A stretch of DNA of 24,000 nucleotides. It comes from Candidatus Harpocratesius repetitus (GTDB taxonomy: Archaea; Asgardarchaeota; Lokiarchaeia; Sigyniarchaeales; Promethearchaeaceae). The stretch is taken from NCBI GenBank assembly GCA_021498095.1, contig JAIZWK010000001.1, positions 716,448 to 740,447 on the forward strand, read 5' to 3'. Shown here piece by piece: positions 600 through 13,852 of this stretch (the first letter of the stretch is position 1; every line of letters starts with the position of its first letter). The notes under the pieces were generated by a model. That model searched no databases. It was not told the origin of the DNA and was given only the letters and a program-made list of their open reading frames with translations. The translations under genes and the position numbers were made by a program.

Positions 600-1901
600 A
601 TGCACTCGCGGAAACAGATCACAAAGTATTTTTTCATCAAAACCTTTGGATGTACTTTTAATTTTGGAGATTCAATGAAAATCGAAGCTCTTCTAAGAAA
701 ACAGAAATATTGTAAAACAAGCGAGATTGAATCTTCAGATATTATAATTATTAATACTTGTGCTGTAAAGCATGCTACTGAAACAAAAATTTTACATTAC
801 ATTTTTGACATACGAAAGCAATATCCAGATAAAAGGATGATTGTTACTGGCTGTCTTCCACAAATTGGGAAAAAAATGTATCAGAAGATTAAATCTCAAA
901 TCCATCCAGATGATCTTATTCTAAAACCTGCAGAAATTCACAATATTATTCTCTCATTAGGAGAATCTTTGAAAACAGATGATATCCTACATAAACCAGA
1001 AATTATTCCTGCTCCTTTTAAGAATGGAAATATAGGAATAATTCAAATTTCTGAAGGTTGTAATAATTCGTGTACTTACTGCTGTACGACGATTGCACGT
1101 GGCAAACTTATTTCATTTAATCCAAAAATAATATTAAATCAAATAAAATCTCTATATTTAGATGGTATAAATAATTTCTTCTTGACTAGTCAAGATTTAG
1201 GTAATTATAATTATTCTGGATATACTTTAGTTGATCTCCTTACAGATATTTCTAATCTTCAAGGGAATTTTCAGATTAGACTTGGAATGTTAAATCCAGA
1301 TTATTTAATTAAAAAAATAGATCCCTTTCTTAGGATTTTTATTGACAAGCGATTTTATCGATTTATTCATATGCCAATTCAATCTGGAAGTAATCGCATC
1401 TTACAGTTAATGAGAAGAAATTATAAAATTGAAGAAATTGAACAAATAATAAAAAAATTCAAGAAATTTGATAGAAATTTTACTTTTTCAACAGATATAA
1501 TTGTTGGATTTCCCTCAGAAACAATTAATGATTTTCAAGATAGTGTTAATTTTATCAATCAGTGGAAACCTTTTAATCTAAATATTTCAAAATATTCAGT
1601 TCGACCTAATACACTAGCAAAAAAAATGAAACAACTTCCTTCTCAAGATATTAAAAAGAGATCAAAGTATTTAGATGAAGTCTATAAACATTATTCCCAT
1701 TTATTAAGAATGAACTGGATTGGATGGGAAGGAAAAGTGTTTGTTTCTGATTCCAATATTCTTAACAGTAATGATAACGGATATTTAACCAGGAATCTTT
1801 ATAATATTCCAATTTTTATTGAATCCGGAAAAATTGGAACTGTTTCTCATATTAAAATTGTTAAGATCATTGGGAATAAAATTATCGGAAAAATTACTTA
1901 A
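600..1901 (+). CDS. Radical-SAM methylthiotransferase, MiaB-like (archaeal/eukaryotic MtaB / CDKAL1 type, tRNA ms2t6A37 family)
   Basis: 433-aa ORF. N-terminal UPF0004-type motif 'FIKTFGCTFNFGDS...IIIINTCAV', radical-SAM cluster motif 'EGCNNSCTYCC' (CxxxCxxC), 'MPIQSGSNRIL', and a TRAM-like C-terminus 'GKVFVSD...VKIIG'. Confidence 0.85.
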   Translation: MHSRKQITKYFFIKTFGCTFNFGDSMKIEALLRKQKYCKTSEIESSDIIIINTCAVKHATETKILHYIFDIRKQYPDKRMIVTGCLPQIGKKMYQKIKSQIHPDDLILKPAEIHNIILSLGESLKTDDILHKPEIIPAPFKNGNIGIIQISEGCNNSCTYCCTTIARGKLISFNPKIILNQIKSLYLDGINNFFLTSQDLGNYNYSGYTLVDLLTDISNLQGNFQIRLGMLNPDYLIKKIDPFLRIFIDKRFYRFIHMPIQSGSNRILQLMRRNYKIEEIEQIIKKFKKFDRNFTFSTDIIVGFPSETINDFQDSVNFINQWKPFNLNISKYSVRPNTLAKKMKQLPSQDIKKRSKYLDEVYKHYSHLLRMNWIGWEGKVFVSDSNILNSNDNGYLTRNLYNIPIFIESGKIGTVSHIKIVKIIGNKIIGKIT

Positions 1902-2923
1902 AGCAAGAAAAAAGGTTTTAAAATTTTAACATAATGATCTCGAATCGAATATTCTGCTACGTTCATTGCCTTTGAAGCTGTTTTTTGTGTTAATATCGGT
2001 TTTGTTTGGAATTCTTTGGCAATTAATCTATCTGCACAATAAACAACAGTTGCAGCTAATATATACGGATTTCTTGAACCTCTTATCCTAGCATTTAATT
2101 GTTTAAGAATATACAAGCTTTTTTTATGTAATAAGCGCCGATATTCTTCTTTTTGCCATTTTGAATTTTTTATCTTCATCCTTTTTAATATTTCTTCACT
2201 ATTTACAATATCATTTATAAATCGGCTAATAAAATCTTCACTTTGATGAGGTTTTATTCTATTTTCAATAAAATTTTGGTATTGCATATAATCTCTTATA
2301 ATTAATTTTGGATTGATACGATGTCCCAACAAAGAGAAAGTCTTGCATAATTCTTTTAAGCTAACAGGTGAATGTGATTTATTTTCTTTAGATGCTTGGA
2401 AAATACAAAAACCAATAAGAGAAACGTGATTTACAATGCATGATGCTCTTTTCTTGATTTCATGGTATAAATATGCTGCTCTATTCTTTACAAGTGTTGA
2501 TATATTAAGATATTCACAAATTTGGGTTAAAATTTTTAAAATTCTATAATCTGTTTCATGATTTTTAATTTTTGAAGGTAGTGAATAAAATTTTTTTAGT
2601 TTTGAAAATTTTTTTTGTTTTTCTGCAGGAATTAATTTCTTCTTATAATCATAAAACGTATATTTTGAAAAATAATCAATATGACTCCCCAAGGTGCATA
2701 TATTGTCCACTGTTTTGCCAATAGAAACAAATTGGGTACTAGAACAAGAACTATATTCTTTATTTTCGTTAATCTGAAAACTATTAATGAAAGAAATCGA
2801 ATTAATAACTAATCCACAATTCTCACAAACAATTTCAAACCCGTTATTTATAAGTGTCCCATTACATTCAGGACATGTTTTATTTATGGAATTATTGTAG
2901 GTGTTTATAATTTTTGAAGTCAT
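1898..2923 (-). CDS. tfb: Transcription factor B (TFIIB-family) paralogue, divergent
   Basis: 341-aa ORF. N-terminal Zn ribbon 'CPECNGTLINNGFEIVCENCGLV' (CxxC-x12-CxxC). Two cyclin-fold-like repeats follow ('NRAAYLYHEIKK...SLIGFCIFQASK' and 'NPYILAATVVYCADRL'). The usual B-reader/EWR-type motif after the ribbon is not recognisable. Confidence 0.7.
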   Translation of the reverse strand: MTSKIINTYNNSINKTCPECNGTLINNGFEIVCENCGLVINSISFINSFQINENKEYSSCSSTQFVSIGKTVDNICTLGSHIDYFSKYTFYDYKKKLIPAEKQKKFSKLKKFYSLPSKIKNHETDYRILKILTQICEYLNISTLVKNRAAYLYHEIKKRASCIVNHVSLIGFCIFQASKENKSHSPVSLKELCKTFSLLGHRINPKLIIRDYMQYQNFIENRIKPHQSEDFISRFINDIVNSEEILKRMKIKNSKWQKEEYRRLLHKKSLYILKQLNARIRGSRNPYILAATVVYCADRLIAKEFQTKPILTQKTASKAMNVAEYSIRDHYVKILKPFFLL

Positions 2924-3135: not shown

Positions 3136-4284
3136 ATGCTGAAAAAACCAACTATTTTTGATTACACGCAAATACAAAATTGTATTATCTATAAATTAAA
3201 AAAGAAAAATCTAATTTATAGAGGATTTATGATCGAAGATTTCGATTATTTCAATGAAATTGACCAATATTTAAAAGAACATTTAGTAACACAAAAAATA
3301 AGCTATATCTTCTACTTTTTTCCTAGAAATAATAAACTAATACTATGGATTTTTTCACGAAATTATAATATCCATGAGTTTAATTTAATTATCAATGAAT
3401 TTCTTTCATATTTTTCAATTTTGTTAAAAAATTTATCTGAAGATATCTTAATAAAATCATTTTTTGTTAATTCTTTTTTACAACATTCAGAAATTGAGAT
3501 TATAGATGATTTTGATGATGAAAAATTTGAACTTGTAGATCAAAATTCAAATTCATTATTTATCTTCAAAATTTCATTCAAATTAAAAACACATCAAACA
3601 AAATACTGTAATATATTGAAAAAATTCCTAGAATATACAAATACTGCTAAAATTCAAACTCTAATTCAGATTAAATCAAAAAATGACTATGTCCAGAAAG
3701 TAGCAATAATTGTTTTTTTTAAAACTCTTACTGAAAAAAAAACTCTTGAAGGATATATTAAATCACTTAAAATATCTGATTTTCTAGCATTGCATAAAAT
3801 AAGATTAAAAGACTTTAAAAGAATGATCTCAAAAAAAATAATAAACAATTATAATCAAATACGCTTAGATGAAGTTTTTCCATATTTTACTAGAAAAATA
3901 GACGAAAAAATCTTTCAACCAAATTATTTACTTAATTCTTTAACTAAAGTTAAAGAAATACTAAAACATTCCTCAAAAAAATTAAAAATTTCGGAATATT
4001 TAATTATAAATAATAAGAATCAATATATTTTTATTTTAAATAACAAAACTCTCTTAAAATTAACTCAATCTCTACTTAAATATTACCCTAATTGTGTAGA
4101 TTTTTTAATCATTTCTTCTAATTCTGAATTAATTCAAATCTTAAAAAATAGAACTTCAATTGAAAAATTATCAAAATTATCTCTATTTTTTTATGAAAAT
4201 CTTCAAAGTTTAATGCAAACAATTTTACACGATACCAATCAAGATCAGAAATCTAGTGAGAGTCCATTATTGATAATCAATTAA
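3136..4284 (+). CDS. Hypothetical protein (382 aa), no recognisable domain
   Basis: Long uninterrupted ORF with ATG at 3136, divergent from the TFB gene. The composition is strongly K/I/N/L-biased and I see no motif I can name. Confidence 0.55.
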   Translation: MLKKPTIFDYTQIQNCIIYKLKKKNLIYRGFMIEDFDYFNEIDQYLKEHLVTQKISYIFYFFPRNNKLILWIFSRNYNIHEFNLIINEFLSYFSILLKNLSEDILIKSFFVNSFLQHSEIEIIDDFDDEKFELVDQNSNSLFIFKISFKLKTHQTKYCNILKKFLEYTNTAKIQTLIQIKSKNDYVQKVAIIVFFKTLTEKKTLEGYIKSLKISDFLALHKIRLKDFKRMISKKIINNYNQIRLDEVFPYFTRKIDEKIFQPNYLLNSLTKVKEILKHSSKKLKISEYLIINNKNQYIFILNNKTLLKLTQSLLKYYPNCVDFLIISSNSELIQILKNRTSIEKLSKLSLFFYENLQSLMQTILHDTNQDQKSSESPLLIIN

Positions 4285-4623: not shown

Positions 4624-4983
4624 TCATTCATATATTAATTGAAAAATTATTAAAAAAAAATTTACAATAAATAAAGAAGCAATACCAATAAATGAGATAT
4701 TTATTATTTGGTAAATTTCATTCATTACTTTCAATAATAATATGTTAATATGGGCTTCAATTACCATATTGTTAATGTATTTACTCATTTCTAAAATAAT
4801 AATTCGTTTAATTTCTGAGATTTTAAGAACTAAATATTCAATTAAAATAAAAAAAATACTTTTAATTGCAATTTTTGGAATAATTTGAATAAAAAAAAAA
4901 AGAAAAAAAACAAAAATGCAAAGAAATGTGTAAATTGAAAATAATTTTAGTAAAAAATCGAATGTATTGCTGAATAGAATCAT
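4624..4983 (-). CDS. Small predicted multi-pass membrane protein (119 aa), last gene of the GTPase operon
   Basis: ATG lies 7 nt after the stop of the upstream GTPase gene. Hydrophobic segments are 'FLLKLFSIYTFLCIFVFFLFFFIQII' and 'ISFIGIASLFIVNFFLIIFQLI', with an amphipathic middle. Caveat: poly-A/T DNA readily yields F/I/L-rich shadow ORFs. Confidence 0.4.
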   Translation of the reverse strand: MILFSNTFDFLLKLFSIYTFLCIFVFFLFFFIQIIPKIAIKSIFFILIEYLVLKISEIKRIIILEMSKYINNMVIEAHINILLLKVMNEIYQIINISFIGIASLFIVNFFLIIFQLIYE

Positions 4984-4990
4984 TTTATTT

Positions 4991-5575
4991 CTACTTCACA
5001 ATAATTGATGGGAAAATCATTTCTAAGATATATTTAAATGCCTCTATGATCCCTCTGTTATCTATTGCAATAGTTGGGATTAATTGGACTTTTGATAAGG
5101 AATTTAATTGAAAATGTTGATTAATTTCATCTAAACTAATTAAATTATCTAAATCTTGCTTGTTTAAACAAATTACAATTGGTAAATCCGAGATTTTTTC
5201 CTGTAAATAGAAATTTAATTCATTCCAAGATGAGAGGTTATCATTGAAATATTTTCTTTGTGAATCGACAACAAACATTATTCCATCTATCCCATAAAGA
5301 GTTGCTGGTCTGGTAGACGCATAGAAATCTTGTCCTGTCGCAGTTAAAAGAGAGATTTTTACTATCCATTCCCCTCCTTTTAATTGTAGTACTCCAAAAT
5401 CAAAAAAAAGGGTTCTTCCTGTTGTTGTTTCAATCGAAGTTAGTAAGTCTTCGCGATTAAACGATCTAAATAAATTTTTCAAGCTAGTTGTCTTTCCAGA
5501 CATAGCACAGCCATAATAAACTATCTTAATCTGAATTTCTTTTTTTTTATAATTAATTAACATTTTTATCCCCAT
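4991..5575 (-). CDS. MglA-type Ras-superfamily small GTPase
   Basis: 'MLINYKKKEIQIKIVYYGCAMSGKTTSL' matches the MglA N-terminus/P-loop pattern (INY...KIVYYGPGLCGKTT). Switch I is 'TTGRTLFFDF'. G3 is 'LTATGQ', with Thr in place of the Ras Asp as in MglA 'TVPGQ'. G4 is 'NKQD'. The more likely start is the ATG at 5563 (MLINY...), preceded by the SD-like GGGGAT. The ORF-track start at 5575 would overlap the upstream stop. Confidence 0.85.
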   Translation of the reverse strand: MGIKMLINYKKKEIQIKIVYYGCAMSGKTTSLKNLFRSFNREDLLTSIETTTGRTLFFDFGVLQLKGGEWIVKISLLTATGQDFYASTRPATLYGIDGIMFVVDSQRKYFNDNLSSWNELNFYLQEKISDLPIVICLNKQDLDNLISLDEINQHFQLNSLSKVQLIPTIAIDNRGIIEAFKYILEMIFPSIIVK

Positions 5576-6465
5576 AAACTTTCAAATGTATCAGATAACT
5601 TTGATGTTTTTTCTAAATTTAATAATGAAAAGAAATTTGCACCCCATTCATTCAAAATAAACTGTAAAATCCTTTCTATAGGTGCATGTTTATAATCAAT
5701 AGTAGAAAATAAAACCCTAGGAGAAAGATTTGTTTTTATATTTAATGCATCTAATATTTGAATTCGATTTAAAATATTAATTGATCTTTTACAAGCATTA
5801 AAGAAGTTTAAAATTTCTTTTTTTATTATGTTTTCTTTAATCTCTTTCTCTTCAATTTCAAAATTCATAATTGATTTTTTTTCTTCTACTGGAATTTTTC
5901 GATAATTTGTTCGTTTTGAAATAATTCGCTTCATTTTTTCAATTTCAATTTCTGTTCTATTTATAGCATTTTCATAAATCCACTTTTCAAGAGAAAGATC
6001 AAAACTTGGAAATGACTTACCGACTATTTCTGTTTTTAAGCTTTTTTCATCAATTTCAAGCTTTAAAAAATAATCAACAAGTGAGTACATTTTATTATAA
6101 ATTTTAATATAGTTTGCATAGGAGTTTTTGTCAATAATAACTCCAAATATCCAAGATTGGAAAGTGGTGATTGTCTCAATTGCTTTTAAAGAGGCGTTAG
6201 GAAAACATAAGAATACGTTTCGTTCACTATTTAAATCATTTTCTTCATATTCTCGAATCTCCAAATAATCACTTAGTTCAATAAAATCAGATAGAAAAAT
6301 CAAATTATTCCTGAAAGGTATTAGTGATATTAGTTCATTGATTAAATTTTCTATAATCTCTTCTTGATCTGATATAATTACAATAGGAATTCTATCTAAT
6401 AAGCATTTTAATAATAATGATACATCTTCAATTTCTGATTGACTAAAACGATTTATCAAATCCAT
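5566..6465 (-). CDS. Uncharacterised 299-aa protein with a core-DENN-like motif pattern in the N-terminal half (hypothesis)
   Basis: ATG at 6465 is preceded by GGTGA (minus strand, 6476-6472), complementary to the 16S 3' end. It is wedged between the Roadblock and GTPase genes. 'LLLKCLLDRIPIVIISDQEEIIENLINELISLIPFRNNLIF...SWIFGVI' resembles the cDENN pattern LL-x-R-hhhh-S/AD...L-hYPF-W-x-h-YIP...PFhIG. The C-terminal half is helical. Confidence 0.75.
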   Translation of the reverse strand: MDLINRFSQSEIEDVSLLLKCLLDRIPIVIISDQEEIIENLINELISLIPFRNNLIFLSDFIELSDYLEIREYEENDLNSERNVFLCFPNASLKAIETITTFQSWIFGVIIDKNSYANYIKIYNKMYSLVDYFLKLEIDEKSLKTEIVGKSFPSFDLSLEKWIYENAINRTEIEIEKMKRIISKRTNYRKIPVEEKKSIMNFEIEEKEIKENIIKKEILNFFNACKRSINILNRIQILDALNIKTNLSPRVLFSTIDYKHAPIERILQFILNEWGANFFSLLNLEKTSKLSDTFESLWG

Positions 6466-6476
6466 TGTATTTCACC

Positions 6477-7490
6477 TTATAATAATAATTGGTTGAAAAT
6501 AGATTCAATTTTTATTGGTGGAACTAATTTTGAGCTATTTTCTGATTCTTTCAAGATTTTTTCTAATTTATTACAATATTTTGGAATTACTAATCTTAAA
6601 AGCCCTAATTTTTGTCTACCTTTTGCGATTCTGGCAGAAAAAATTGCTGATCGAATTTGATTTATAAATTGAAACTCATCAATACATTCTAATAAAATTG
6701 ATGTTATATGCATTCTCTTCAATTGCCAAGCACATTTATCTGCTGTATAGAATAAAGATTGACTGAGAGTTGCTTCTTTTTCCAAATTATCACTGGTTCT
6801 ATTCATTTTATTTTCTAAACTTGAGAGAATGAAGCCACCTTCAAAAGTAATGAATGTATTTATCAAATCAAATGTATTCCTACTAAAATCATCTAGTAGA
6901 TTATCTAGTTGATCATATGAAGATTGAGCAAAACTTAATGAAAACATAGGAATTCGCTCCTTCTTTTCAACCTCGTCTTTATTTTCTATTGAATTAAGAA
7001 ATCTTTGCATTTCTTCAGGAGAATAATGTCTCATTGGTGGTTTAAAAGAATTCTTTGATAAAATAAGACATTTTTTAATTTCAGCTAAACTAGAACGAAT
7101 TTTTAAAAATATTCCTCCTAAATTTACATTTGATTTCGTTGTTATAGCAACGTAAAATTCTTCATTTAGATTTTGTAAATTTTGAGCTTGAATGATCTTA
7201 TTAATTGTGGTGTTTCCATAATTTTTTAAAGGTGTGATTAATATTTTTGCCATTTTTCCTTCAATTAATATATATTTTAACTTATTTTGATGTAAACTTA
7301 ATCCACAATTATAGATTGCTGAGGTCGCAGCACAGATACTAAATAATTCTTCTTTAGAAAGCCAAATGCCACTATGTTGAATTGGATTTCCGTCTCGTTG
7401 TGTTAAAACAACATTATCTACTCCTTTTGTGGCTTTAATAAGATCCAAATAAGATTTTATTTTCATTGTTAGTGAAATTTTCTTCACCAT
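6477..7490 (-). CDS. Tandem Roadblock/LC7-domain protein (MglB-like), 337 aa
   Basis: The N-terminal domain 'YLDLIKATKGVDNVVLTQRDGNPIQHSG...ELFSICAATSAIYNCG...ILIEGKMAKILITPL' fits the Roadblock/LC7/MglB pattern. A second similar unit lies near the C-terminus ('FDLINTFITFEGGFILSS...SQSLFYTADKCAWQL...SILLECIDEFQFINQI'). It is the first gene of the operon that contains the MglA-like GTPase. Confidence 0.8.
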   Translation of the reverse strand: MVKKISLTMKIKSYLDLIKATKGVDNVVLTQRDGNPIQHSGIWLSKEELFSICAATSAIYNCGLSLHQNKLKYILIEGKMAKILITPLKNYGNTTINKIIQAQNLQNLNEEFYVAITTKSNVNLGGIFLKIRSSLAEIKKCLILSKNSFKPPMRHYSPEEMQRFLNSIENKDEVEKKERIPMFSLSFAQSSYDQLDNLLDDFSRNTFDLINTFITFEGGFILSSLENKMNRTSDNLEKEATLSQSLFYTADKCAWQLKRMHITSILLECIDEFQFINQIRSAIFSARIAKGRQKLGLLRLVIPKYCNKLEKILKESENSSKLVPPIKIESIFNQLLL

Positions 7491-8129: not shown

Positions 8130-9627
<1,498 letters not shown>

Positions 9628-9718
9628 ACAACGCACCGAAGGTATCATCCTTCGGGCATTTCTTTTTATATAATTGATTTTAAATTTATTGTTTGACTAT
9701 TACAACTAAGCTGCTTTT

Positions 9719-9791
9719 GGGCCTATAGCTCAGTTGGTAGAGCGCCTGACTTGCACTCAGGAGGTCGGGGATTCAAATTCCCCTAGGTCCA
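9719..9791 (+). tRNA. tRNA-Ala (anticodon UGC), in the 16S downstream spacer position
   Basis: Acceptor GGGCCTA/TAGGTCC with the G3:U70 alanine identity pair. D arm GCTC-AGTTGGTA-GAGC, anticodon stem CCTGA/TCAGG with loop CTTGCAC, T arm GGGGA-TTCAAAT-TCCCC, discriminator A. A T5 run follows. Confidence 0.95.
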
Positions 9792-10010
9792 TTTTTATTC
9801 ATGAAGAATGAGATTAATTTGTACCAAAATTTTTAATATTTTTAACATATAAGAAAAATTAATGTTCTTAATACCTTTAAAGTTAGCAGATTGGGATATG
9901 GATAAATTTCGATTGCGATTACAATTATTAAGTGTGTTGGTAATTGTTGTAATACTTATTTATGTTGTTTTTTCTTCGAAAGATAATGAGAGTTAATTTT
10001 TTTTAATTAA

Positions 10011-11225
10011 TTATTTTGGTTTAACTGCAGATACTATTTTGATAATATCATTATTCTTTAATTCATAATGTTCACCTAAACGCATTTTTGATCTTGCATC
10101 TAAACCGTAAATGAAATTCTTTGCTAGATCTGAATGAATTTTTGTTTCAACAAATTTCTTCAATTTTGTATTTTTTAAGACTAAATGTGCATCAGGTAAT
10201 ACATTTCCATCTTTATCAGAAAATGAATTCGTATCATAAACAGGATATACAACAATTTGATTTAATACATTGAAAACAGAATAATTTATTATATCTTGAA
10301 TACCTGTACTATTGTATTTTTTGAGTATTTTTTCTTCAATATTTTTAAGTGCGTTTAGTTCAGATTTTTGCAATTTTTCATTTTGTATTATTTTAAACTT
10401 AGTATCACCTGGTAAATATTCAATAATTCGATCTTCTGCATATTTTCTTAACCAATACTCTGCTAAAGCACTACATGGGATAATTTTCCCTTTATATTTT
10501 CTTTTTAATTCTGTTAACATTTGTTCTCCATTATGCTTATCTATTTTATTTGCTGCAATTATTATTGGTTTTGAAATTTCTCTTAATTTTCTTGCAAAAT
10601 CGAAAATATTGTCATCATTCCATTTTGTTAATTTCTCAAAATCTAGATTAATAGAATTCATTGCATTAAGAATATGTTCTTTTTGAATACCAATTCCAGC
10701 TAACCTTTCATGCAATAAATCTACAAATGATAGTTTTTCTTGTTCAATCTTTCTAACAAATTTTCCCCAATCTTTTTTAATAATAAGATCCTTAAACCAG
10801 AAATTAATTTCATCCTCCAAAAATTTTATATCATCTAGCGGATCTCTTGCCCCTTCATCAATATCTTGACCTTCAGCATCTAGACTTCCAGAAATATCTA
10901 TAACGTGAATTAATACATCTGCTCGTGCAAGATCTGATAAAAATTGATTTCCCATTCCCTTTCCTAAATGCGCATCAGGAACTAATCCTGCAACATCCAG
11001 AAGTTTCACAGGAATAAACCTATTTTGGTTTATGCAAATAGAGTTTTTTGGATTATCTTTAATATTTAATTCTCGACATGCACAAATTGTTCTAACAAAA
11101 GATTTTCCTAAATTTGGTTTGATAGTTGTAAATGGATAATTTGCTGTTTTATATTGAGTCAAACAAGCTGCATTAAGGAATGTACTTTTCCCAGAAGAAG
11201 GTTTCCCAACAATTCCAATAAGCAT
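10011..11225 (-). CDS. Obg-like GTPase of the Ygr210 type (TRAFAC GTPase with C-terminal TGS-like domain)
   Basis: 404 aa. G1 'GIVGKPSSGKSTF', G2 'NYPFTTIKPNLG', G3 'LLDVAGLV', G4 'AANKID', and a C-terminal 'GEHYELKNNDIIKIV' TGS-like beta-grasp. The long insertion between G3 and G4 is typical of the archaeal/yeast Ygr210 subgroup. Confidence 0.85.
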   Translation of the reverse strand: MLIGIVGKPSSGKSTFLNAACLTQYKTANYPFTTIKPNLGKSFVRTICACRELNIKDNPKNSICINQNRFIPVKLLDVAGLVPDAHLGKGMGNQFLSDLARADVLIHVIDISGSLDAEGQDIDEGARDPLDDIKFLEDEINFWFKDLIIKKDWGKFVRKIEQEKLSFVDLLHERLAGIGIQKEHILNAMNSINLDFEKLTKWNDDNIFDFARKLREISKPIIIAANKIDKHNGEQMLTELKRKYKGKIIPCSALAEYWLRKYAEDRIIEYLPGDTKFKIIQNEKLQKSELNALKNIEEKILKKYNSTGIQDIINYSVFNVLNQIVVYPVYDTNSFSDKDGNVLPDAHLVLKNTKLKKFVETKIHSDLAKNFIYGLDARSKMRLGEHYELKNNDIIKIVSAVKPK

Positions 11226-11272: not shown

Positions 11273-13852
11273 CTATGAATTTTGACTTAAAAGATATTTT
11301 ATTGCTGGCTCTAATTCGTGAATTATAACATTTTCAATGATTTTTTCATTTGGTTCTTTGATTAACAAAGGTTGTGATTTATTAAGTAAAATTTTTAATT
11401 TTCTATGTAATTCTTTTAATTCTTGCTTGATCAATTTGCTATTTTCAATTATTTGTTTCTTCTTATCTAATATATCTACAGAAGAATTAGGTGATTGTAA
11501 TTTTGGCAGATTATATCCTAAGAAAACCTCATCGCTTTTCTTTTTTAATTCATTAAGATGAATTTCAATCAAATTGATTATTCTGCTTTCTTCAATATTA
11601 AATAATTTAGAATGTGAACTTGCTAAGGTAAAAATGATTTTAAAATCATAATTAGAGTATTTTAATTCTTTTGGAATAAAAATAACATATCTTTTCTCGA
11701 TTTTTTCTTTATATAAATTTTTAGAGAGATTTTGATAAGTTTCTTGACAGTAATTTTTATACAATTCATTTATCCGTAAACCTAAGGAATAAAAATCCAA
11801 AACATGATTTGAATCTTTTTCAATAATAAAAACCTGAAGTGATAATAAATCTTTATTATCTTGGAGATTTTTCTTAAAATCTTGTATATTTTCATTATCC
11901 TCAAAACTATTTTCCGTTTTTAGCGCATTTCTTACAATTTTCAATAATTTCAAGCCATTAAGACAGTCTTCAATTCTTAATTCAGAATTATGCGATTTTT
12001 CAAAAAATTTCTTTAAAAGAATATAGCGCTTTTGAATTTCATTCCATCCTCTAACAGTTAATTGCTCATTCTGAATTTTTGATATCAATTTGTCAAAAAT
12101 GGAGAAAATTTTTGACATAGCTCCCAAGTAGTTATCGCAAAATATGAGTTCTTCAATTTGGTGAATATGCTTTAATAGGTCTTTATAAATCTCATGCATA
12201 ATTCTAAGTTTTCTTTTATTAAAAGTCAAAGTTTCTTCTTTTTCTAAGTTGTTTTGTATTTTTTTCGGTATTTTATCTATTTTTTTAATTAATTTTGGGT
12301 AATTAGTAATATGTTCTCTTTTTTTCAGCTTTGACTTTCGGAAAAATTGATTTTGATTTTTATTCTTTTTAATTATAGATCCTTCAATATTATTCGTGTA
12401 AAGTAGAAAAGGTTTTGCATTTGAGTAGGTTTTAATTATACACATCCCAGTAGGAAGATCTTGAATATTGAATATCTGGTCTTTTTCAATGCCTAAATGA
12501 TAAATGACATCTTCACTTCTTTCATTAAACTTAAAAAACAGTTTTGTTCCTGAGTTTAATATTATGTTTTTACTGATATCCAATGAAGTAGTAATCGAAA
12601 GGAGCCCTTCTCCTTTTCCTCTTAATAATAATGCTATATCTTCTAAATATAATGATACATTCGATAAATTAACAAGTTTATTTGATGCAATGTATGAGAC
12701 ATCCTCAAAAATTGTTAAATGCATTAACTGATCTGTTGGTTTACGATTCATTGCCATTTCCCAAATCCATTTTAGAATTAAATTGGCAAAGAATATTAAA
12801 TCTTGCTTTGAACCACCTAACTTTAAAATACTTCCTAAATCGATAACCGTTTTTCTTTGAAGTATCTCTGAAACTTTTAAAGTTTTATTAGAATCATTAA
12901 ATACAGCACTTAATGGTCCAGAATAAAATCGTCTTAATCTGTTCTTGATGCTAACAATTGTATTTCCAATTTGTGGAATACTATTTTTTAATTGATTTTT
13001 TGAATCATCCAAGATTGAAAAGAATTTATTCCATGTCTTTGGTTCTGATGATTTGCATACTTTATTTAACACATTTACAAGCACACTTTCCATTTGAGGT
13101 GAAAATTCTGAATTGAACTCAAGGATTCTACATGATTTTAGGCTATCAAATAGAATTTCTGCATAATTATCACTAGAAAATATATCCTTATCAAAAAGAT
13201 TAATTGCAAAATTAATTCCTGGTTCTAGTATTAAAAGATCTGGAATAAATGTCTGTAATTGGGTATATTCTCCTTTAAATTCAAATAATGTAAATGGAAT
13301 TGTTTTTAATTTCTTGCTTATTTTTTTTAAGAAATACATAATAAAACTAGTTTTTCCAGTGCCCGTCTGGCCATAAATTAAAATATGTCTTTTTAATTCT
13401 TCAATATCAAGACTAAATTTTTGTAAATAATGATTTTTATAAATGATTACTCCTAGGGGAATGGATTTTCTTCTTTTTCTTTTTGGTTTTTTTGTAGGTT
13501 TATATCCCCACCAAGTACAATTAAAACGTTTTTGGTGAATTCTTTCTATATAAAAAATACCAATAATAAAACAAAAATCGATAATATAAAAAATTTGCAT
13601 TTTAATATTAAATTGGATTAAATTCACAAGAAACATAATTAAGTTTTTAAAGATAATTAAAAATAATAAGGATTTTATGAAAATTGAGTTATAGATTTTA
13701 AATTTTCTCAGTTTCCATATCTGAAATATAAATACACTAAAACTAGCACAAACAATACAAATATTTAACACTAAAGTAATTATCCAGAAATTGTTATACG
13801 TCATTATTAAGGAATCAATTCTAAAAATTGAGGAAATCACGAGTAAAACCAT
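11273..13852 (-). CDS. Membrane-anchored HerA/FtsK-superfamily P-loop ATPase with long C-terminal coiled-coil region (859 aa)
   Basis: About 100 aa of hydrophobic helices are followed by the basic patch 'KKPKRKRRK'. Walker A is 'ILIYGQTGTGKTSF' (aa ~157-170). HerA/DUF87-like blocks are 'TLFEFKGEY', 'TVIDLGSI' and the Walker B-like 'HLTIFEDVSYIA'. Further blocks are 'RGKGEGLLSITTSLDISKNIILNSGTKLFFKFN'. The last ~370 aa are K/E/L/I-rich heptad-like sequence. Confidence 0.75.
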   Translation of the reverse strand: MVLLVISSIFRIDSLIMTYNNFWIITLVLNICIVCASFSVFIFQIWKLRKFKIYNSIFIKSLLFLIIFKNLIMFLVNLIQFNIKMQIFYIIDFCFIIGIFYIERIHQKRFNCTWWGYKPTKKPKRKRRKSIPLGVIIYKNHYLQKFSLDIEELKRHILIYGQTGTGKTSFIMYFLKKISKKLKTIPFTLFEFKGEYTQLQTFIPDLLILEPGINFAINLFDKDIFSSDNYAEILFDSLKSCRILEFNSEFSPQMESVLVNVLNKVCKSSEPKTWNKFFSILDDSKNQLKNSIPQIGNTIVSIKNRLRRFYSGPLSAVFNDSNKTLKVSEILQRKTVIDLGSILKLGGSKQDLIFFANLILKWIWEMAMNRKPTDQLMHLTIFEDVSYIASNKLVNLSNVSLYLEDIALLLRGKGEGLLSITTSLDISKNIILNSGTKLFFKFNERSEDVIYHLGIEKDQIFNIQDLPTGMCIIKTYSNAKPFLLYTNNIEGSIIKKNKNQNQFFRKSKLKKREHITNYPKLIKKIDKIPKKIQNNLEKEETLTFNKRKLRIMHEIYKDLLKHIHQIEELIFCDNYLGAMSKIFSIFDKLISKIQNEQLTVRGWNEIQKRYILLKKFFEKSHNSELRIEDCLNGLKLLKIVRNALKTENSFEDNENIQDFKKNLQDNKDLLSLQVFIIEKDSNHVLDFYSLGLRINELYKNYCQETYQNLSKNLYKEKIEKRYVIFIPKELKYSNYDFKIIFTLASSHSKLFNIEESRIINLIEIHLNELKKKSDEVFLGYNLPKLQSPNSSVDILDKKKQIIENSKLIKQELKELHRKLKILLNKSQPLLIKEPNEKIIENVIIHELEPAIKYLLSQNS

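Follow-up and report, generated by a model that had tools for sequence, protein, structure and literature searches.

We analysed a stretch of 24,000 nucleotides (nt) from contig JAIZWK010000001.1 of Candidatus Harpocratesius repetitus (positions 716,448 to 740,447 of the forward strand), which is called the window below and which holds three successive genes on its reverse strand, coding for a protein of the Roadblock/LC7 superfamily, a protein of 299 amino acids (aa) and a small GTPase. Without its rRNA gene the window has a G+C content of about 26%, in keeping with an AT-rich archaeon; the genome belongs to the Lokiarchaeota. Our main subject is the 299-aa protein, which on balance we think is a stand-alone module of the DENN type that belongs to a pan-Asgard operon, binds the GTPase and controls its nucleotide state. 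The genes and regions concerned are listed here, with the basis of each assignment in brackets.

6477..7490, minus strand: Roadblock/LC7-superfamily protein, 337 aa, first gene (Pfam)
5566..6465, minus strand, stop codon 5566-5568 included: DENN-like protein, 299 aa, middle gene (alignments, AlphaFold, Foldseek, hhalign)
6016..6465, minus strand: cDENN-like alpha/beta domain, residues 1-150 (AlphaFold secondary structure, hhalign to folliculin)
5611..5994, minus strand: all-helical dDENN-like region, residues 158-285 (AlphaFold helices; Foldseek alignments to DENND1A/B reach across the region)
5569..5592, minus strand: C-terminal motif DTFESLWG, residues 292-299 (conservation in homologues)
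4991..5575, minus strand: MglA-type small GTPase, 194 aa as called, third gene (PDB phmmer, Pfam)
4624..4983, minus strand: very hydrophobic open reading frame (ORF) of 119 aa, possible fourth gene (position; similar-sized ORFs in relatives)

The three main genes are co-oriented and closely packed, with an 11-nt gap between the Roadblock and the DENN-like gene and a 10-nt overlap between the latter and the GTPase gene as called. Orthologues of the GTPase begin at the position of Met5 (5561-5563); this conserved methionine is probably the true start, in which case the GTPase would begin about 2 nt off the DENN-like ORF.

The middle ORF is a real gene and not a chance reading frame, since it has 21 close homologues (45-100% identity, all of about 299 aa) within a family that clusters at 50% into 77 representatives, and since the stretches quoted in a first-pass annotation of this DNA (LLLKCLLDRIPIVIISDQEEIIENLINELISLIPFRNNLIFLSDF from residue 17, VFLCFPNASL from residue 84 and SWIFGVIID from residue 104, all exact in the translation of 5566..6465 on the minus strand) lie on its best-conserved columns (R25, P27, R52, R82 and W105). 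In the diverse alignment, R25, P27, R52, E74, R82, W105, E160, F269 and E273 are invariant or nearly so, as is the C-terminal tail. Database entries for the protein and its relatives still read 'hypothetical' and name no domain: all close homologues are unannotated, none has a precomputed Pfam domain, the identical protein is filed as 'hypothetical protein' K9W44_02870 (Candidatus Lokiarchaeota archaeon), and a 90%-identical one carries the label Candidatus Harpocratesius. The family is uniform in length, at about 290-310 aa, and its alpha/beta core begins at about residue 12 with no N-terminal extension, so that the annotation was right in finding no longin (uDENN) part before the core. Its caution that the resemblance to DENN might stem from biased composition can be set aside, because members encoded in genomes of very different composition keep the conserved motif positions (e.g. 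P0061 and P0079, which are rich in A, R and G). When the homologue search was repeated with the family profile, no further distant members were found. One Promethearchaeota metagenome-assembled genome (MAG; L001, GCA_054681365.1) harbors tandem DENN-like paralogues (4995-5912 and 5941-6882) that are about 20% identical to the 299-aa protein, the SLWG tail being missing at least in P0079. Neither a GTPase nor a Roadblock gene lies near these paralogues, which might form a DENN-DENN pair that recalls FLCN-FNIP or C9orf72-SMCR8.

DENN folds consist of a three-layer alpha/beta core, with a sheet of about five strands, followed by an all-alpha dDENN region (PMC3521125; PMC3438538), and this succession is present in the models that AlphaFold2 returned for the 299-aa protein. 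With an alignment of 18 sequences the model had a predicted local distance difference test score (pLDDT) of 85 and a predicted template modelling score (pTM) of 0.83, and with 44 sequences these values were 91 and 0.87. Both models have an alpha/beta domain with strands at residues 28-32, 53-57, 83-87, 105-110, 132-138 and 143-149 and helices between them, mostly at pLDDT above 90, and then a second part made of helices only (158-185, 193-199, 203-240, 249-256 and 263-274) before a low-confidence tail; the helical region predicted by the first-pass annotation after the alpha/beta part was thus recovered at residues 158-274. A longin (uDENN) domain is absent from the 299-aa polypeptide, and a Roadblock-fold protein is encoded upstream instead. 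When the models were searched against the PDB with Foldseek in two runs, the only near-full-length matches were the DENND1B-Rab35 and DENND1A-Rab35 complexes, with 284-309 aligned columns, a template modelling score for the query (TMq) of 0.39-0.42 and a probability of 0.89-0.98; in the second run the values were 286-287 columns, 0.41-0.42 and 0.97-0.98, at an E-value of about 0.03-0.05 (0.027-0.045). Every other match among the top 50 was a P-loop-type ATPase or a related P-loop or nucleotide-binding alpha/beta fold, with TMq values of at most 0.32 in the first run and 0.30 in the second.

At the sequence level, the likeness points to the C-terminal domain of folliculin. We scanned 44 family members singly against Pfam, and Folliculin_C was the only family matched by more than two of them, with three matches that all fall in the N-terminal 60 residues or so: residues 5-62 of P0026 on profile positions 4-62 (E 4.8e-4, 20.2 bits, the best), residues 5-54 of P0033 on 6-55 (E 0.015) and residues 6-44 of P0062 on 16-54 (E 0.05). 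As positive controls, the C-lobe of DENND1B and the folliculin C-terminal domain matched their own Pfam models at 125 and 302 bits. A Pfam DENN match of P0039 (13.1 bits against a cut-off of 23.4, E 0.09) was off the folliculin register by an estimated five residues or so and was not counted. With hhalign and a template alignment of 15 metazoan folliculin C-terminal domains, residues 5-59 of the family aligned to folliculin 351-406 with a score of 30.9 (P 0.0011), and the 120-sequence family alignment gave a score of 28.8 (P 0.0024); these matches span 53-63 columns, and the program gave a homology probability of 12-21%. The reversed template scored 10.5, a GTPase profile 12.5 and a Roadblock profile 15.5, and none of 40 column-shuffled templates reached the real score (median 12.6, maximum 18.5). 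The alignment places 'DRIPIVIIS' on the first strand of folliculin ('GNQVIWKS') and '...SLIP-FR' on '...TMLPVGCVR'. This is the same register in which the annotation had matched the cDENN signature by eye, with LLDRIPIVIIS as first strand and LIP-FR as the 'LLxP' helix end and second strand; the DENND1 likeness that it had cited was undetectable in pairwise comparison, as BLASTP of the 299-aa protein gave E-values of at least 3 for both the DENND1B C-lobe and folliculin 340-579 (comparison sequences verified against PDB entries 3TW8 and 6ULG). A signal emerged solely when profiles or structures were compared. Against one single folliculin sequence the hhalign comparison was not significant, and it is informative only with the folliculin family alignment. 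Judged by these profiles, the folliculin signal appears real, but local and modest.

The genomic context of the gene was followed across Asgard archaea by a scan of one genome per GTDB species with the GTPase alone as bait, which returned 283 loci, of which we examined the best 80. By their labels these loci are Loki-, Hel-, Hod-, Thor-, Hermod-, Odin- and Sigyn-archaeal, and among them are those of Prometheoarchaeum syntrophicum MK-D1 and Lokiarchaeum ossiferum. A DENN-like ORF lies directly upstream of the GTPase gene, ending at or overlapping its start, in about 76 of the 80, and in about 75 this ORF is itself immediately preceded by the gene of a full-length orthologue of the Roadblock protein. 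Full-length DENN-like ORFs matched the family profile with E-values of 1e-85 to 1e-112, and partial copies at contig ends scored lower. Among close Lokiarchaeales the whole neighbourhood is syntenic (TFB, radical-SAM enzyme, 16S rRNA), and the retention of the triad in 75 to 76 of 80 loci makes the three genes a pan-Asgard unit that reaches far beyond this general synteny of close relatives. The coupling of the ORF to the GTPase and Roadblock genes, which the annotation had read from one locus, was thereby found across Asgard archaea. In one locus (L029, 4727-4993) the DENN gene is reduced to an 89-aa C-terminal remnant, and in another (L058) the GTPase stands in a different context. A complete triad of the Asgard type was also present in two MAGs labelled as bacterial, namely a Candidatus Nanopelagicaceae bacterium (L034) and a Patescibacteria group bacterium (L055); these contigs are probably mis-binned Asgard sequences and not horizontal transfers.

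The neighbours of the 299-aa ORF are a Roadblock/LC7 protein and a small GTPase, as the annotation had described them, and the GTPase turned out not to be of the Rab type that its comparison with eukaryotic Rab regulators had implied. The top PDB matches by phmmer were MglA of Myxococcus and Thermus (E 3e-27 to 1e-25), followed by Asgard and Arf-family GTPases at 6e-08 and weaker; Pfam assigned it to Arf (1.8e-12) and Ras (1.5e-07). Its P-loop reads GCAMSGKT, an intrinsic arginine stands in switch I within GRTLFFDF (DRTLFFDF in MglA), and TATGQ (TVPGQ in MglA) replaces DxxGQ. A switch-I arginine and the sequence T-x-x-G-Q are hallmarks of MglA. They are described in part in PMC10933270. On this evidence the operon GTPase is to be classed as MglA-type and not as Rab-like. 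Most loci outside the Lokiarchaeales (L015-L086) contain a second, divergent MglA-like GTPase paralogue (E about 1e-24 to 1e-31 against the profile of the operon GTPase) on the opposite strand and convergent with the operon, typically 0.5-1 kb and in a few loci up to about 3 kb downstream (e.g. L021, 3703-4398). In the window no second MglA-like GTPase was present, as hmmsearch of its ORFs found one only.

In the Roadblock protein a Robl_LC7 domain occupies residues 14-91 (Pfam E 8.7e-07, 29 bits against a cut-off of 23). Its mean column identity across Asgard archaea is 62%, compared with about 29-47% for the DENN-like protein, and its C-terminal domain (residues ~200-337) is strongly conserved, with the motifs ITxEGGF and RQKLGLLRL. 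This C-terminal domain may be a second domain of the Roadblock or longin type; a comparison between profiles of the N-terminal and C-terminal halves was not significant. The protein is likely an MglB-like partner of, or platform for, the GTPase, and it is a reasonable candidate for supplying in trans the longin-like fold that the DENN-like protein does not have, as the first-pass annotation had suggested.

It has to be said that no comparison of sequence or structure passed a conventional significance threshold, and several results weigh against the DENN reading. No Pfam family, DENN (PF02141), dDENN (PF03455) and Folliculin_C (PF16692) included, was matched by the 299-aa protein at E <= 1, no member of the 44 scanned reached the Folliculin_C cut-off of 27 bits, and neither phmmer with the protein nor hmmsearch with the family profiles matched a DENN or folliculin protein in the PDB; the profiles retrieved only spurious coiled-coil and ferritin matches, in the helical region, and NCBIfam gave no match for the protein. 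The hhalign signal is limited to some 55-65 residues. Against a two-sequence DENND1 profile it was not significant (P 0.085), which says little because the known pair of folliculin and DENND1 fails the same test (P 0.19). Neither Foldseek run gave a match at E <= 0.001, the TM-scores of 0.41-0.42 with DENND1A/B are under the usual same-fold mark of 0.5, and the lowest E-values (0.008-0.03) belong to the TadA/CpaF, VirB11, GspE, F1, Rho, MCM and FlaH ATPases. Two loci, L044 (1653-3348) and L050 (1073-2789), have the Roadblock gene followed by the GTPase gene with the DENN gene missing, and because of these the DENN protein is dispensable for the Roadblock-GTPase pair in some lineages. Profile and structure searches of the kind that the annotation had proposed as checks gave divided answers: nothing above cut-off in Pfam or the PDB together with a sub-threshold Folliculin_C signal at an hhalign P of 0.001-0.002, and DENND1A/B as the sole near-full-length structural matches with ATPases at the lowest E-values.

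The ATPase matches could mean that the protein is a degenerate, catalytically dead NTPase of the P-loop/RecA type with a helical C-terminal domain, an adaptor unrelated to DENN. Secretion ATPases (TadA/CpaF, VirB11, GspE), F1, Rho and FlaH reached probabilities of up to 0.99 at their low E-values, and a search of the viral library BFVD, which is without DENN proteins, yielded AAA/RecA-like matches only (best TMq 0.31). These ATPase alignments, however, cover about 175-215 columns, or more at a very high root mean square deviation, at a TMq of at most 0.30, against 286 columns at 0.41-0.42 for DENND1A/B. None of 120 family sequences has a Walker A motif (G-x4-G-K-[ST]); strand 1 is followed by 'SDQEE' or 'G-x-D/E' and not by a glycine-rich loop with Lys-Ser/Thr. 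Among the 44 members scanned it is Folliculin_C that recurs in Pfam, and no NTPase family does so. Moreover, a minimal topology of the P-loop-NTPase kind, but devoid of nucleotide-binding residues, is described for the DENN core (PMC3521125), and NTPase folds likewise rank high in structure searches with genuine DENN domains (PMC3438538; PMC3521125), a mixture like the one seen here. We consequently rejected the P-loop NTPase reading, which we consider improbable, for its missing Walker A motif and its lower coverage and TM-score. It would be more improbable still that the resemblance is fortuitous, the protein having a lineage-specific new fold and owing its position to general synteny alone. 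All database similarities are indeed below threshold, and since the whole neighbourhood is syntenic in close Lokiarchaeales, local gene order there proves little. But the adjacency to the GTPase persists in Loki-, Hel-, Hod-, Thor-, Hermod-, Odin- and Sigyn-archaeal loci whose wider neighbourhoods differ, the genes touch or overlap one another, none of the 40 decoys equals the score of the folliculin-C profile, and a DENN assignment was reached independently in a published analysis (Liu et al., discussed below). We thus regard homology of the 299-aa protein to DENN domains as quite probable, and its most likely form is a stand-alone module of cDENN plus dDENN type without a longin (uDENN) domain.

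What such a module would do can be approached through its partners. There is a good probability that the DENN-like protein interacts physically with the operon GTPase, and we propose that it would bind the GTPase, possibly jointly with the Roadblock protein, and control its nucleotide state. MglB-type Roadblock proteins are GTPase-activating proteins (GAPs) for MglA (PMC3521125; PMC10933270), and since the GTPase of the window keeps the catalytic Arg and Gln of MglA, the Roadblock protein would be expected to act in the manner of MglB, as GAP or as platform. With the GAP role so taken, exchange remains as the unfilled function, and the DENN-like protein might supply it as DENND1 does for Rab35. 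Because of this vacancy, and because DENND1A/B and, in vitro, the folliculin C-terminal domain (PMC3438538) have nucleotide-exchange activity, we favour by analogy, tentatively and at somewhat under an even chance, a role as guanine nucleotide exchange factor (GEF) for the adjacent MglA-type GTPase. There are points on the other side. The multimeric DENN complexes FLCN-FNIP, C9orf72-SMCR8 and GATOR1 are GAPs via their longin domains, and according to the 2026 Avl9 preprint monomeric DENN proteins can be GAPs as well, so that a GEF function is not to be assumed; in Avl9 and DENND6A catalysis takes place on the longin side and the DENN part binds the switch regions (same preprint). It might then be that the protein is DENN-like but no GEF, and that a complex of Roadblock and DENN-like proteins in trans would serve as GAP, GAP cofactor, scaffold or effector for the GTP-bound GTPase, in the manner of FLCN-FNIP, C9orf72-SMCR8 or Avl9, whose DENN part binds or dimerises while the longin side provides catalysis. 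The sequence signal does point to the C-terminal domain of folliculin, whose complex is a Rag GAP, the warning from Avl9 and the GAP activity of MglB-type proteins apply here as well, and the tandem DENN-like paralogues without a GTPase described above would fit a DENN-DENN pairing. However, a GTPase with its own Arg and Gln should be served sufficiently by a Roadblock dimer alone as GAP, in structure it is the monomeric GEFs DENND1A/B that match best and not the FLCN, FNIP, SMCR8 or NPRL chains that the PDB likewise contains, and a GEF role was preferred by Liu et al. We would call the non-GEF complex the main rival, though a rather unlikely one.

The family ends in D-x-[IMFL]-x-[SG]-[LM]-W-G-COOH, which reads DTFESLWG in the window and is invariant in the 18 close homologues. 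Across 120 family sequences, W is the last or second-to-last residue in 101, and 97 of these 101 have D at position -6. AlphaFold gave residues 286-299 a pLDDT below 50. The motif looks like a short docking peptide, and the flexible D-x-Φ-x-S-L-W-G tail would probably dock onto the Roadblock protein or the GTPase. We found no mention of this tail in the literature searched, and it offers a concrete handle for experiments.

Among known proteins the folliculin C-terminal domain (PF16692; PDB 3V42) is closest to the 299-aa protein in size and start point. Like the module predicted for the Asgard protein it is compact (about 225-300 residues for the two), with a five-stranded alpha/beta core followed by helices; Walker motifs are absent from both, structure searches with either place NTPase folds near the top, and its first strand-helix-strand is what aligns with the Asgard family (hhalign P 0.001-0.002). 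Strand order and connectivity, B-C-A-D-E in the folliculin C-terminal domain, set a DENN core apart from NTPases. In contrast to the Asgard protein, folliculin has a longin domain at the N-terminus of its own polypeptide and acts as a heterodimer with FNIP as a GAP for RagC/D, whereas the Asgard protein lacks a longin domain, has an MglA-type partner and shows no detectable sequence similarity beyond about 60 residues; folliculin chains were also missing from the top 50 Foldseek matches of the 299-aa model. DENND1A and DENND1B (Rab35 GEFs; PDB 3TW8 and 6EKK) are the best full-length structural matches and share a motif pattern of hydrophobic helix, Arg, first strand, L-x-P helix end, second strand, a strand with W/Y, hydrophobic residue and G, and a beta-hairpin; they differ in having a longin (uDENN) lobe in cis and in acting on a Rab, and their TM-scores are below 0.5 with no pairwise or thin-profile sequence similarity. 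The bacterial MglA/MglB switch resembles the operon in that the gene of an MglA-type GTPase adjoins the gene of a Roadblock-fold regulator. In the polarity switch of Myxococcus xanthus a separate exchange factor is needed, and RomR-RomX is the GEF; the Asgard system would likewise need one. MglB has about 160 aa. The Asgard system differs in that its third component is DENN-like and is not RomR/RomX, and in that its Roadblock protein has 337 aa and includes a further conserved domain at the C-terminus.

An operon of this composition has been published. Liu et al. (bioRxiv 10.1101/2020.10.19.343400; Nature 2021) described an operon of a Roadblock (LAMTOR1-like) protein, a small non-Rag GTPase and a DENN-domain protein conserved in most Asgard archaea, the DENN protein being without a fused longin and being proposed as a GEF module analogous to folliculin; there the assignment came from HHpred analysis of asCOG alignments. 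From its composition and distribution, that operon is very probably the one in the window. The GTPase is called 'Rab-like' in that text and is clearly of MglA type in our analysis, and the conservation was reproduced here by the GTPase-anchored scan (~76/80 loci). In later papers DENN domains figure among the eukaryotic signature proteins of Asgard archaea; the linkage of DENN to an MglA-type rather than a Rab-like GTPase did not appear in the literature searched, and no experimental test of the operon was found in the searchable literature. The idea of a DENN protein, its operon and its GEF role is therefore already published at family level, the first-pass annotation, which had left open whether such a protein was new to archaea, being essentially a rediscovery; the present analysis contributes a separate test of the DENN assignment, the recognition of the GTPase as MglA-type and the conserved C-terminal tail. 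In our view the interpretation of the annotation is supported in part: a DENN-like fold is likely, the partnership in the operon was observed and the GEF role is a candidate. The support is partial because the similarity to DENN folds, which the annotation had wanted to be significant, is below threshold, because the GTPase is MglA-type, because the idea is not new and because DENN proteins are not all GEFs.

DENN modules, which act as regulators of Rab, Rag and Arf GTPases, were for a long time regarded as a eukaryotic invention. A stand-alone Asgard DENN protein coupled to a Roadblock protein and an MglA-type GTPase in almost every Asgard lineage would be a plausible prokaryotic precursor of these modules, an evolutionary point already made by Liu et al. 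It also constitutes a compact three-protein system for asking whether the ancestral DENN activity was that of a GEF or of a GAP, a question reopened by the eukaryotic DENN GAPs. More speculatively, and in our opinion doubtful as it stands, the triad could be an MglA/MglB-type switch with a stand-alone, tail-docked DENN exchange factor, a 'split' ancestral state in which Roadblock/longin and DENN parts act in trans on an MglA-type GTPase, and from which later fusion and a change of GTPase would have given rise to the eukaryotic longin-DENN modules, both GEFs and GAPs, for Rab, Rag and Arf.

The 119-aa hydrophobic ORF downstream of the GTPase may be a small membrane protein of the operon in Lokiarchaeales. 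Similar-sized ORFs (96-125 aa) follow the GTPase gene in the close relatives L002-L006, sequence similarity was detectable in the closest relative only (L003, L004 and L007 being copies of one contig), and no Pfam or NCBIfam match was obtained.

On its other side the Roadblock-DENN-GTPase operon adjoins the 16S rRNA gene in divergent orientation, with about 640 nt from the Roadblock start to the 16S start. A 16S rRNA gene is also found near the operon in locus L005 (1858-3352), and the contigs of many Asgard MAGs (L013-L086) stop 0.2-1 kb upstream of the Roadblock gene, which fits an assembly break caused by rRNA; this suggests that the adjacency of operon and 16S rRNA is widely conserved in Asgard archaea. 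The 16S-tRNA-Ala pair of the window is not followed by a 23S rRNA gene, and the rRNA genes appear to be unlinked. The remaining features of the window are as follows.

8130-9625, plus strand: 16S rRNA, archaeal
9718-9792, plus strand: tRNA-Ala
600-1901, plus strand: MiaB-like radical-SAM enzyme
1898-2923, minus strand: TFIIB/TFB homologue, called by eye from the translation
3136-4284, plus strand: conserved protein of 382 aa without family assignment, syntenic in relatives
10011-11225, minus strand: YchF/Obg-like GTPase
11273-13852, minus strand: membrane-anchored protein of 859 aa, whose orthologue matches DUF87/HerA-type ATPase families

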